DNA of 63,524 bases, the filler included, from Basidioascus undulatus (taxonomy: Eukaryota), in NCBI GenBank assembly GCA_000826855.1. It is 10 parts of 10 records of this genome, joined end to end, with 100 filler letters (N's around TTAATTAATTAA, not from the genome) between each part and the next. Parts side by side here need not be neighbours in the genome. Positions count along the whole stretch, not along the records: positions 1 to 24,973 come from JTLS01000228.1; 9 more parts are not named here. One strand, written 5' to 3'. Positions 11,926-21,641 of the stretch are shown piece by piece. A program made the translations under genes and the position numbers. Under the pieces are notes generated by a model. That model was not told where the DNA came from. It did not search any database and saw only the letters and a list, made by a program, of their open reading frames with translations. Every line of letters begins with the position of its first letter. Positions within the stretch are counted from its first letter, which is position 1.

Positions 11926-12016
11926 CTCTCCTTAGCTCAGTTGGAAGAGCGCGAGACTGTAATGGTTAAGCCTTCAGGTAATCTTGAGGTCCCTGGTTCG
12001 ATCCCGGGAGGGGAGA
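11926..12016 (+). tRNA. tRNA-Tyr(GTA) with an 18-nt canonical intron (11963-11980)
   Basis: Acceptor stem CTCTCCT/AGGGGAG, D arm GCTC-AGTTGGAA-GAGC, anticodon GTA at 11959-11961, T arm CCTGG-TTCGATC-CCGGG, followed by a T5 Pol III terminator. Confidence 0.95.
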
Positions 12017-17848: not shown

Positions 17849-20800
17849 ATGGCGCCCTCCAAGACGGCCAAGGGCTCGAGTGGCGGTGCAAAGGCCAGCT
17901 CGAGCTCGAGCGCTGGAACGACGGGCATCAAACGTGTCAAGGGCGAGGTACGGCATTGTTGCATTCCATTTCATTACGAGTATGCCACCCTGACATGCTT
18001 GAGTTTAATGCAGAACTTCTACCGCGATGCGTGCGTCGCTATTCGGATTGGGGCGAGCAGGGGCTGGACCAGGGACTGATGAAGGGCTGTGGGTGGGATA
18101 CAACAGCAAGAAGGCCGCGCGCGTCAAGATGCTCAACGGCGGCAAGGCCGTGCGCGACAAGGATGGCAAGATCATCCAGGCCGCGGCGTTCCAGACCGCT
18201 GAGAAGGACACCAAGCCGGGGCGTGTCCAGCCGGACAGGCGGTGGTTCGGTGCTTTGTCTCTTCCCAGTCTCCCCTCCCTCTTTCCTCCCTCCCTGTAGG
18301 TTCTGACGCATAGCGCGGACCGTCCACAGGCAACACCCGCGTCATCTCCCAGACCGCGCTCACCCACTTCCGCGACGCCCTCGGCGACAAGGTCCACGAC
18401 CCGTACAGCGTCCTCCTCAAGCGTAACAAGCTCCCTATGTCCCTCGTCCAGGACGCCCACCTCGGCCGTGCTCGCCCCATGGCCGGCGGCAGTCTCGTCG
18501 ACACCGAGCCCTTCAAGGACACGTTCGGAAAGAAGGCGCAACGGAAGCGGCCTAGGTTGGATGTTGGGTCGTTTGAGGAGCTGGGGAAGGCCGTCGGGGA
18601 CGAGGGTGAGTCGCAGGTCCTCTCCTCTTGTTCTCCTTCTCTCTTGTCTCCTGGGTTTCGCGCCAGGTTTCTTTCCTTCTCTTCACTTCTTTCCTATGCC
18701 ACAAGCCAAGTCAAGTCTCCCCCCCACTTCCCACGGGGGAGTCTGTTACGCTCGTGGAAGAGCGACCCCGCGCGCCGTGCCACCCCTCTTGTCCGTGTTC
18801 TTTGGTCGAGAGGCGGTTCAAGCCGAGGCCGTCTTGGCCAAGGCGAGGTCGGCGCGCATCTTTGTCTGCTGTAGAGTTGATTCCCCCGCATGCCTGATGG
18901 CGCCGATAAGCGGGGGCGTCGTAGTTGGCGGACGCACATTCCTTTTATCTTTCGCTTCTCCTCTCTTTTCGTTTCGCCCATCATGTCGCCTCAAGGTGTG
19001 TCTTGTATTCAGGCAACATTGCTGACGTTGTCATTCGGCACTGCCCAGAATCGACGCTCGACCTTTCCGCTCCTACGCCCTCCTTCGACGCCCTCCACGC
19101 CGCCGCCTCGACCTCCTCCGCCGCTGCCCCTTTTACCGACGCGACCACCTCGGCCCTCTCCTCCGCACCCGACGCCGTCGATCCTAGCCAACTCCCCTTC
19201 GACCTCGACTCCCTCGCGCCCACCGCGCGCGAGGCGCAGTACCGCAAGGGCACGTCCCGGCGCATCTGGGGCGAGCTGTACAAGGTCATCGACTCGAGCG
19301 ACGTCGTCATCCACGTCTTGGACGCGCGCGACCCCGAGGGGACCCTGTGCAAGAGCGTACTTGAGGGGATTCGGAGGGAGCGCTCGCACAAGCAGGTCGT
19401 GCTGGTACTGAACAAGGTCGATCTGGTCCCTACTTGGGTCACGGTGAGTTTACGTTCCTCCTCCCCCATTCCCTACCCTGTTTTCCATTTCTTTTCCTTT
19501 CCGCTTTCATTCGGTTTCCTTCTCCCCTTTTCTCTTTCGACCCACGCGTCAAAGTCAAGTCCCTCTCTCCCTCATTGGGTGTCCTCCGGGCATACGAGGG
19601 CGGACTGTTACGTCCGTGGAAGACCGATCTGGCCCGCCGCGCCGCTCCTTCGGGAGTTCAAGCAGACGCCGTTTTGGCCGACGCGAGGTCTCGCGGCGGT
19701 GCGTTTGTCCGTGCAGAGTTGAGCCCTGTCGCACTTCGAGAGAATTGATAACACGGGAGGGCTCGTAGTTTGCGGACGTACATCGCTTTCCTCTTCTATT
19801 CCCCTCTGTTTCTCTTTTCCCGTCAACTTTAGATTCTCGAGGCGTTGGTGTCGAAGCAACGAGAGCTGACTTCCGCCCCACCTGCTCCCTACGCCAGGCC
19901 AAATGGGTCCGCCACCTCTCGCGGACGTACCCGACGCTCGCGATGCACTCGTCGATCAACAACTCGTTCGGCAAGGGCTCCCTCATCCAGCTCCTCCGCC
20001 AGTTCTCCGTCCTCCACTCGGATAAGAAGCAGATCTCAGTCGGCTTCATTGGGTACCCGAATGTCGGCAAGAGCTCCGTCATCAACACGCTCAAGAACAA
20101 GAAGGTCTGCACTGTCGCGCCCATTCCGGGAGAGACGAAGGTGCGTCGATTCGCCCACGGTTTTTTCTGACCGAGCCAAGAGCTAACCTGTGAAGGAACG
20201 ACGATCCAGGTCTGGCAATACATCACGCTCATGCGCCGGATCTACCTGATCGACTGCCCTGGCATCGTCCCTGTCTCGGCCCGCGACTCCGACACGGACA
20301 CCGTCCTCAAGGGCGTCGTGCGCATCGAGAACCTTGCGACGCCGGTCGAGCACATCCCGCAGCTCCTGACGCGCGTGCGGCCCGAGTACCTCGAGCGGAC
20401 GTACGGCGTTACGCGCCCGTCCGACTCCCCCGCTGGCTGGGCAGGCCAGCGTGGCGCAGACGAGCTGCTCGGCTCCATCGCGCGAAGGACGGGGAAGTTA
20501 CTGAAGGGCGGCGAGCCCGACCTGAACGCCGCCGCGAAGATGGTGCTCCACGATTGGATTCGGGGCAAGATCCCGTTCTTTACGAGGCCGCCCGACGCCG
20601 ACGGCCAGCCGGTGGTCAAGCCGTTGCCCGAGGAGCCGCAGCTTGTGCCGCAGGAGGGCGCGAAGGATAAGGGGAAGGGGAAGGCCAAGGAGGGCGGGCG
20701 GGACGCGCAGGAGGTGCTCGCGTTGAAGGAGAAGAGCATCAAGGGCGTCGTCCAGCCTATTCGGCAGATCGCGGTCGCCACCAAGTATGTTTTCGTCCCG

Positions 20801-21641
20801 TTATTCCTCCGTCTCGACGCTCACCTGACTGGATACGCCCCCGTACACCAGGTTCCTCCCAGACGATGTCACCGGCGACCCGGACGCGTTCGACGACCCG
20901 CCTGAGGGCGAAGAGGCGGAGGCGAGCGACGCTGAGGGCGACGCCGACTCGGACGAGGAGAGCTCTGGCGCCGAGGCGGAGGAGTGGCACGGTATTGGTG
21001 GGGGCGAGGAGGAGGGGAGCGAGGAAGAGGAGGAGTACGAGGAGCCTGAGCTTGAGGAGCTCGGGTGGGATGAGGTGTTTGGCGCGGCGTCTGGCGCGCC
21101 CGGTGCGGAGGCAGGGGAGGAGGAGGAGGAGGAGGAGGCGCCGTCAAAGAAGCGGAAGTGTGCGTCTTCTATTTTCCCTCTCTTCCCCTTGTGATGGTTC
21201 GGGCACTGACGGAATGTCGTGCTGGATAGCTCTGTCCGCTGACGATGAGGAGGACGACGACGAGCCGGCGGACTCGCGCAAGTCGCGTCCGAAGGAGCCG
21301 CGCATGACCACTAGCAAGGTTCGTTGTCGCTTTTTTTTTGTCATCGTCGCTCTCGCTGAGTTGCGATGCTGATGCGGTGGACTTGACTCGCCGAGCAGAA
21401 GGCGGCCACGAACTACTTCACCACTGCGAACGTTAAGAACAAGAACGTGCGTCTTGCTCCCTTCTCGCTTCCTCTTGCTTCCTTTTCTATTCCATGACAA
21501 GCGAGCTGACTCTGTGACAATTGCAACCCGCTGCGACAGCGTGACCGCAAGATCCCGAAGGGCGGGCGCGGGGGTCCGAGCGCGGCCGAGCGGAGAAGTC
21601 GCGCTGTGGGGGATAAGGTGAAGAAGATGAAGCGGCGGTAG
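17849..21641 (+). CDS. NOG2: Nucleolar GTPase Nog2 (60S biogenesis)
   Basis: [88 protein letters not shown]; acidic C-terminus; multi-exon. Confidence 0.96.
18699..18941 (+). ncRNA. Intronic H/ACA snoRNA, snR191/U19(SNORA74)-like, copy A
   Basis: In the long NOG2 intron ~18606-19048; pocket AGTCA(18709)/GTTAC(18745), pocket AGAGT(18873)/TAGTT(18922), ACA box 18936-18938 14 nt after the pocket; complementary to LSU helix 69 GUAACUAUGACUCU. Confidence 0.85.
19542..19785 (+). ncRNA. Intronic H/ACA snoRNA, snR191/U19(SNORA74)-like, copy B
   Basis: In the long NOG2 intron ~19444-19898; pocket AGTCA(19553)/GTTAC(19607), pocket AGAGT(19715)/TAGTT(19766), ACA box 19780-19782; same motif order as copy A. 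Confidence 0.85.

Follow-up and report, generated by a model that had tools for sequence, protein, structure and literature searches.

Two predicted U19/snR191-type H/ACA snoRNA genes in separate introns of NOG2 in Basidioascus undulatus, one of them very likely a lineage-specific copy of the other

Introduction

The two pseudouridines of helix 69 are said, in the title of Badis et al. 2003, to be the most conserved in ribosomal RNA (rRNA). In animals, paralogous small nucleolar RNAs (snoRNAs) occupy separate introns of one host gene, as U14 does in hsc70, and the vertebrate snoRNA U19/SNORA74 (RF00090) sits in a host gene other than NOG2. In Saccharomyces cerevisiae, snR191 (RF01263) guides psi2258 and psi2260 (PMC8476143). 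Lim et al. 2021 report that the NOG2 intron carrying the snoRNA keeps its position in eight intron-poor fungi, among them the basidiomycetes Ustilago maydis, Malassezia sympodialis, Pseudozyma hubeiensis and Meira miltonrushii, and count the conserved NOG2 position in 170 of 249 snR191-bearing fungi (PMC8476143, Table S6). Here, we analyze a stretch of 63,524 nt from the genome assembly of the fungus Basidioascus undulatus (GCA_000826855.1; 10 parts joined end to end with filler letters, hereafter the window) and describe two paralogous candidates of the U19/snR191 type, copies A and B, which lie in two separate introns of a single NOG2 gene.

An earlier note on this DNA had concluded that the link between the snoRNA and its host gene extends to basidiomycetes. 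It does, but the extension is not new, having been published by Lim et al. 2021 (PMC8476143); the NOG2-intron snoRNAs of that work belong to the same family and occupy the same conserved intron, and multiple copies there reflect duplicated host genes and not two introns of one gene. Canzler et al. 2018 list snR191 as HACA_42, with a first hairpin conserved across Dikarya, and report that most H/ACA families are apparently lost, and hard to detect, in several Pucciniomycotina (PMC5824354). Luo et al. 2013 describe fungal snoRNA-cluster introns that vanish and reappear elsewhere, and discuss intron transposition and reverse splicing (PMC3596301). Those clusters are of the box C/D type with non-coding hosts, and their introns move between loci, whereas at the present locus an H/ACA intron would have been copied within one protein-coding gene with the donor kept. 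Earlier work has established the RNA family, its target and NOG2 as its host, and only the within-gene duplication looks new: a literature search that worked from partial texts and had the per-species data of Lim et al. outside its reach found no report of two snR191 copies in one NOG2, nor of a snoRNA-bearing intron copied within a single protein-coding gene of a fungus.

Two H/ACA-like elements with intact pockets and boxes

Both elements, like their host gene, are on the plus strand. Copy A occupies positions 18698-18940 (243 nt) in intron A and copy B positions 19540-19785 (246 nt) in intron B, and the two fold alike: a 5' guide hairpin is joined through a hinge to a long central hairpin domain, after which come the 3' guide hairpin and an ACA box. 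The 5' hairpin of copy A (18699-18757) has pocket strands at 18707-18713 and 18745-18749, with AGUCA at 18709, GUUAC at 18745 and the motif UGGAAGA at 18755; then come the H-like box AGAGCGA (18759-18765), the central hairpin domain (18766-18862), the 3' hairpin (18863-18934, pocket strands 18870-18877 and 18922-18927, with AGAGU at 18873 and UAGUU at 18922) and the ACA box (18936-18938). Copy B repeats this order: a 5' hairpin at 19542-19619 with AGUCA at 19553-19557, GUUAC at 19607-19611 and UGGAAGA at 19617, the H-like box AGACCGA (19621-19627), the central domain (19628-19705), a 3' hairpin at 19707-19777 with AGAGU at 19715-19719 and UAGUU at 19766-19770, and the ACA box at 19780-19782. 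Counted by hand, the distance from the top of the pocket to the H-like box or to ACA is 14 nt for both pockets of both copies, and the ACA box so placed past the 3' pocket marks the predicted 3' end of each RNA. Two gapped motif patterns match these two sites alone in the window, and no match was found in any of 100 dinucleotide shuffles.

Folding was constrained by keeping pockets and boxes single-stranded. The constrained fold of copy A reached -107.3 kcal/mol against a minimum free energy of -110 kcal/mol (a gap of 3), and that of copy B -89.1 against -97 kcal/mol (a gap of 8); relative to shuffled sequences, the folding energy of copy A has a z score of -3.2. Both copies have the extra hairpin domain downstream of the H box and ahead of the 3' guide hairpin, and in copy A this domain carries a 23-nt insertion. 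The earlier note had described an element of about 244 nt in each intron with an identical order of motifs, a pocket-to-box distance of 14 nt, and upper stems that have diverged in sequence and still pair. The motifs are all where it placed them, the spacing was recovered in all four cases, the constrained folds of both copies confirmed the pairing of the upper stems, and the hairpin-hinge-hairpin fold on which its proposal hung is present twice.

Assignment to the U19/snR191 family

At Rfam gathering scores, a tRNA was the single match in the whole window. In an E-value-mode search covering 1351 nt, copy A matched SNORA74 over the full model length (30.8 bits, E 1e-5), and copy B matched snR191, likewise over the full length of the model (25.4 bits, E 0.002). 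The seeds of the snR191 and SNORA74 models are from yeasts and vertebrates, respectively, and we read the sub-threshold scores as reflecting the limited reach of these models and not as excluding the two elements from clan CL00043. The comparison with these two models that the earlier note had suggested therefore came out in its favor as to full-length matches but not as to the gathering scores.

We therefore turn to fungal relatives. A scan of a metagenome collection with a 5'-hairpin pattern carrying the conserved motifs returned at least 107 loci, and 20 of the 107 listed also passed a simple 3'-hairpin filter and were aligned with MAFFT. Two covariance models were built from these 20 homologues alone, with the window copies left out: R1, covering the 5' hairpin with the hinge and H box, and R2, covering the 3' hairpin with ACA. 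The 5' strands of the central domain were misaligned by MAFFT, and R1 and R2 are limited to the guide hairpins. Run over the whole 63.5-kb window at E<=10, each model matched exactly copies A and B, R1 with 58.2 bits for A and 47.2 bits for B, and R2 with 28.8 bits for A and 42.5 bits for B.

A family structure of 49 pairs in seven helices, drawn by hand on the alignment of the 20 homologues, has 89.2% of its cells paired, a value that falls to 35-45% once the 3' partners are displaced by 1-3 columns. Changes on both sides were found at 32 of the 49 pairs, and none of 500 shuffles reached any of five covariation measures; three of the covarying helices lie in the central domain. The homologues were fished with motifs of the window copies, so that their conservation of those motifs is in part by construction, but stems, spacing and the central domain played no part in their selection. 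The same caution attaches to the 39 alignment columns that are invariant in all 22 sequences (22/22), many of which were imposed by the search pattern.

The pocket residues of both copies coincide with conserved pocket residues in the SNORA74 and snR191 consensus. Their strands, AGUCA/GUUAC and AGAGU/UAGUU, are complementary to the two overlapping strings that the earlier note quoted for helix 69. Together with the clan matches and with R1 and R2 hitting A and B only in the window, the pockets bear out the claim of that note that the elements are U19/snR191-like, and the assignment of both copies as candidate U19/snR191-type H/ACA snoRNA genes, each with two intact predicted pockets, is well supported by these sequence comparisons.

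A different view would make A and B structured intronic elements that regulate the splicing or expression of NOG2 and are not snoRNAs. That neither match reaches its Rfam gathering score would sit comfortably with it, but a full-length match to H/ACA models with guide pockets and box spacing intact would not, nor would the finding that 19 of 27 listed homologous loci carry the RNA with no NOG2 exon beside it, which argues that the RNA is not tied to NOG2 splicing. We consider such a regulatory role scarcely credible and retain the assignment to the snoRNA family.

Several observations weigh against that assignment or narrow its base. The scores fall well below the gathering values of the matching Rfam models (30.8 versus 71 bits for A and 25.4 versus 46 bits for B). 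The hinge reads AGAGCG in A and AGACCG in B and differs from ANANNA, since position 6 is G and an A first appears at position 7. The folding energy of copy B is no better than that of shuffled sequences (z -0.55), and the top of its 5' lower stem is weak, with a bulged C and a U-U mismatch. The homologue set is incomplete and biased, the search pattern having demanded the conserved motifs; complementarity to the target is predicted from homology of the guide sequences; and A and B are candidate snoRNAs by sequence and predicted fold. The evidence for splicing, described below, comes from one sample, as the contigs used derive from the possible source sample of the assembly.

With regard to the hinge, position 6 is A in 9/20, G in 10/20 and C in 1/20 homologues, and position 7 is A in all 20 (20/20). 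Because position 6 varies in this way among homologues, the departure from ANANNA appears to be a trait of the fungal family and not a defect of A or B. The effective hinge box may be AGANNNA, with G or C at position 6 in 11 of the 20 homologues and in both copies (alignment A5, columns 76-82). A separate observation concerns the 3' box, in which ACA is replaced, 14 nt past the pocket, by AUA in one homologue (L017) and by UCA in two others (L007 and L050); these elements are otherwise complete and represent either variant boxes or dead copies. At the tip of the central domain (18820-18850 in A, 19660-19690 in B), all 22 sequences (22/22) have a small hairpin with a C-G closing pair and a 5-nt loop starting with GU, which reads GUCUU in copy A, GUUUU in copy B and GUUAU, GUUUU or GUUCC in homologues (alignment A3, columns 113-131).

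Set beside S. cerevisiae snR191, the elements share the NOG2 host, an intron position that by exon mapping equals that of copy B, the succession of hairpin, hinge, central domain, hairpin and ACA, and the pocket residues GUCA/GUUAC and GAGU/UAGU. They differ in number and size (a single yeast copy with 273 model positions, against two copies here of 243 and 246 nt), in their low similarity to the yeast model, and in the hinge, for which the yeast consensus is AGAUUA. Vertebrate U19/SNORA74, the best Rfam match of copy A, has in common with them the clan, the three-hairpin layout and the pocket residues; its model has 201 positions, and its gathering score of 71 is the one that copy A misses.

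The NOG2 host gene and its introns

The host is represented by its 5' part (17850..21500), which was recognized from Pfam matches to NGP1NT and MMR_HSR1, from a match in the PDB and from the joints of contigs of run X3. The exons lie at 17850-17947, 18013-18029, 18107-18248, 18329-18605, 19049-19443, 19898-20139/40 and about 20209-20784. The NGP1NT domain was found in exon 3 (6e-11) and exon 4 (8e-31), and the exons also encode the GTPase motif (MMR_HSR1). Yeast Nog2 is the best PDB match of the gene, and exon 5 (19049-19443), which separates the two snoRNA introns and whose ends are set by X3 joints, matched yeast Nog2 (PDB 3jct_m) at 1.2e-27 and Nug1 at 3.5e-12. On the strength of the NGP1NT and GTPase matches, and with Nog2 far ahead of Nug1, we identify the gene as a NOG2 orthologue.

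Intron A (18606-19048; 443 nt, phase 1) and intron B (19444-19897; 454 nt, phase 0) are each defined by an X3 contig joint that skips the full 443 or 454 nt between GT and AG, and intron B is sited immediately ahead of the protein sequence AKWVRHL. The other five mapped introns of NOG2 measure 65, 77, 80, 69 and 67 nt. The earlier note had set two introns of about 450 nt against others mostly of 60-130 nt, a fair description in which only the range given for the short introns is slightly generous. X3 contigs bridge six GT..AG intervals of NOG2, both snoRNA introns among them, and one of these intervals holds a 17-nt micro-exon, which brings the number of mapped introns to seven. The micro-exon (18013-18029) lies between two short introns on the plus strand, and the X3 contig contains exactly those 17 letters.

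Run X3 bears only the label 'DNA?', and its sample is the same as the possible source of the assembly. We infer that X3 is derived from cDNA, and its support is not independent of the assembly. Its contigs leave 18606-18707 with zero cover and have lower depth across the introns; they say nothing on the ends or levels of the RNAs. X3 also includes one contig that runs from inside copy A to exon 5 (18708-19077) and another that covers all of intron B and both exon edges (19415-19926), each at a depth of about 15 compared with about 90-105 for exon contigs. These two could stem from unspliced or partly degraded precursors or from DNA carry-over, between which the contigs cannot discriminate.

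Copy B marks the conserved intron position and copy A is lineage-specific among the loci sampled

Among the 107 listed metagenomic loci, 28 score at least 44 bits with R1, and 27 of these (L104 was left out) were searched locally by tblastn with the exons of the window. NOG2 exons were found in eight of the 27 (L030, L031, L040, L055, L056, L072, L079 and L097), and in all eight the snoRNA lies at or beside the junction of exons 5 and 6, which is the position of intron B. Both flanking exons were seen in seven of them, and the short locus L097 has exon 5 only. Copy B thus occupies the conserved NOG2 intron position, and copy A is at a different site. None of the 28 listed loci has a second R1 or R2 match. 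The site of copy A is uninterrupted by an intron in L030, L072, L055 and L056, and L031 is too disrupted there to be read.

The presence of the snoRNA at the B position in eight of eight loci, along with the lack of a second copy in any of the 28, indicates that copy A is lineage-specific. On these sequence comparisons the duplication is real and copy A is specific to this lineage among the sampled loci, and the position of copy B is best explained as the ancestral NOG2 position. The yeast gene points the same way: a hybrid RNA of exon 1, the upstream part of the intron and the whole snoRNA is about 1100 nt long (PMC9351541), which puts the yeast intron near codon 270, corresponding to the end of exon 5 on yeast Nog2 numbering.

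The remaining 19 of the 27 loci have the snoRNA with no adjoining NOG2 exon. They include L021, L022, L027, L046, L054, L066, L077, L078, L087 and L107, and 11 of the 19 form one close group. In the fungi of these 19 loci the snoRNA gene has left NOG2, so that the NOG2 location is typical and not obligatory. The open reading frame (ORF) listing of L021 revealed no clear host gene around the snoRNA, which looks intergenic, downstream of a kinase-like ORF.

Two of the loci have further peculiarities. At L080:2225-2330 there is a near-twin of the NOG2-hosted copy of L040, in which the 5' hairpin and hinge are kept (R1 67.0 bits) and are followed by unrelated sequence; it is either an artefact of assembly that joins two sequences or a copy that was truncated or interrupted. 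At L031:4519-5674 the flanking NOG2 exons are broken by stops and frame changes around a snoRNA that looks intact, so that either the contig is of poor quality or the host gene is in decay.

Constraint on both copies

The four blocks that contain the pockets, the boxes and the bases of the stems are 78-86% identical between A and B. Identity is about 60% in the central domain and in both intron flanks, and 45-51% in the two stem apices, in which pairing is nevertheless kept. A pair-by-pair reading of the constrained folds gave at least five double changes that preserve a pair, along with several one-sided G-U exchanges. This comparison supports the view of the earlier note that the two elements are paralogues. 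Drift at the rate of the flanks would destroy the pocket strands, the spacing and the paired stems, and we therefore take both copies to be functional, with good probability on these sequence grounds. The same pattern, with blocks of 78-86% against flanks of about 60% and compensatory pairs in the apices, agrees with the further suggestion in the note that selection acts on both.

We considered whether a single copy does the work and the other is a decaying duplicate that is not built into a small nucleolar ribonucleoprotein (snoRNP), in which case copy A would, by position alone, be the likelier to be dead. Redundant duplicates usually decay, copy A scores low with R2 and has the insertion in its central domain, and in copy B, for its part, the 5' lower stem is the weaker one and the folding energy does not stand out. 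However, with flanks that are down to about 60% identity, the four pocket strands, the 14-nt spacing, ACA and compensatory stems survive in both copies, and neither is the poorer throughout, since A leads with R1 and B with R2. Loss of one copy to decay is therefore improbable in our judgment. Still harder to accept is that the likeness of the copies is maintained by repeated gene conversion and not by selection on each: the two share one orientation and are separated by only about 840 nt, an arrangement that favors conversion, but the identical blocks are short (5-24 nt), match pockets, boxes and stem bases, and are broken up by apices of 45-51% identity, and conversion tracts would not respect functional boundaries or leave compensatory pairs. 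Selection on two functional copies thus remains our preferred account of their likeness.

Origin of copy A

The lengths of the intron flanks are nearly the same on both sides: the snoRNA is 92 nt (A) and 97 nt (B) from the 5' splice site, and 108 nt (A) and 112 nt (B) from the 3' splice site. In the relatives that were read, the upstream flank is about 38-50 nt. Against mononucleotide shuffles, the similarity of the 3' flanks gave a z score of 4.6 (0/500 shuffles as high), and that of the 5' flanks a z score of 2.0 (16/500). A harder null consisted of about 12,500 window segments of equal length from both strands, and the score of the true partner was reached by 0-1 of them in the case of the 3' flank and by 1-3 in that of the 5' flank, so that the partner ranks first to fourth. 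By contrast, for the 40 nt of exon beside the splice sites, 36% and 23% of random segments are at least as similar. Flanks that are alike between exons that are not suggest that the whole intron was copied, and intron transposition would be expected to leave similarity that stops at the splice sites. The evidence for this sequence-based suggestion is moderate. The flanks are CT-rich and about 60% identical, and other CT-rich segments of the window score equally, which counts against it; homology of the flanks is accordingly probable and not proven. A simple tandem segmental duplication is disfavored by the lack of duplicated exon sequence beside the introns.

The most interesting possibility raised by the locus, which we put forward tentatively and hold to be somewhat less likely than not, is that intron A was gained as a new spliceosomal intron when excised intron B inserted itself again, exact to the splice site at either end, at a second site in the same NOG2 transcript or gene. 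The gain would have proceeded by reverse splicing, reverse transcription and recombination, or by an equivalent copying process, and a bound snoRNP would lengthen the lifetime of the excised intron and so favor its reinsertion. In the animal multi-copy snoRNAs, too, paralogous guides are released from separate introns of one pre-mRNA; those introns pre-existed, whereas in this fungus the copying seems, from the flanks, to have included the intron itself.

The other possibility to be weighed is that intron A was a short intron already in place, into which the snoRNA, with or without some flank, moved from B by retroposition or gene conversion, and that no intron was gained. An intron of about 52 nt does occur in the same variable NOG2 linker in two agaricomycete-like loci (L040 and L079), about 16 codons from the A site, which tells against the novelty of intron A; the similarity of the 5' flanks is weaker than that of the 3' flanks; and snoRNAs have been described as moving by retroposition and recombination (PMC8178906). 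On the other side stand the near-identical flank lengths, far above the 38-50 nt found upstream in relatives, the ranking of both flanks at or near the top of some 12,500 window segments, the halt of similarity at the splice sites, and the absence of any intron at the site in four of the six listed NOG2 loci with a readable junction. On balance, a pre-existing intron A seems rather unlikely. Whichever way the intron arose, we regard it as very likely that A and B are paralogous U19/snR191 H/ACA genes and that A was copied from B in the ancestral intron. The duplication of the snoRNA into a second NOG2 intron, as the earlier note had it, can thereby be given a direction, with copy A lineage-specific and copy B at the conserved site.

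Proposed processing, target and significance

For the processing pathway and the target, we propose a scheme modeled on the family. The NOG2 pre-mRNA would be transcribed and introns A and B spliced out, after which exonucleases would trim each excised intron to an RNA of about 245 nt shielded by Cbf5/dyskerin, Nop10, Nhp2 and Gar1. The AGUCA/GUUAC and AGAGU/UAGUU pockets would then place two uridines of the helix 69 loop, two nucleotides apart and equivalent to yeast psi2258 and psi2260, at 14 nt from the H-like box and from ACA, respectively, and both would be converted to pseudouridine. The second site, to which the snoRNA-bearing intron, apparently entire and nothing more, would have been copied, lies 395 nt upstream in NOG2. 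One NOG2 transcript would release two guide RNAs. Their guide sequences are identical, which would make the copies redundant.

A redundant guide pair from one pre-mRNA would offer a clean system in which to ask why duplicate guides persist. If the whole intron was indeed copied, the locus would present a rare intron gain with donor and product both readable in one gene, and, if by intron transposition, a traceable gain with the donor still 395 nt away. Apart from the duplication, the locus and its 28 metagenomic homologues provide a fungal model that finds the family where Rfam cut-offs fail.

Other features of the window

The tRNA gene that was the single Rfam match at gathering scores lies at 11926-12016 on the plus strand (48.8 bits) and carries an insertion of 19 nt, presumably an intron, after the position of the anticodon loop.

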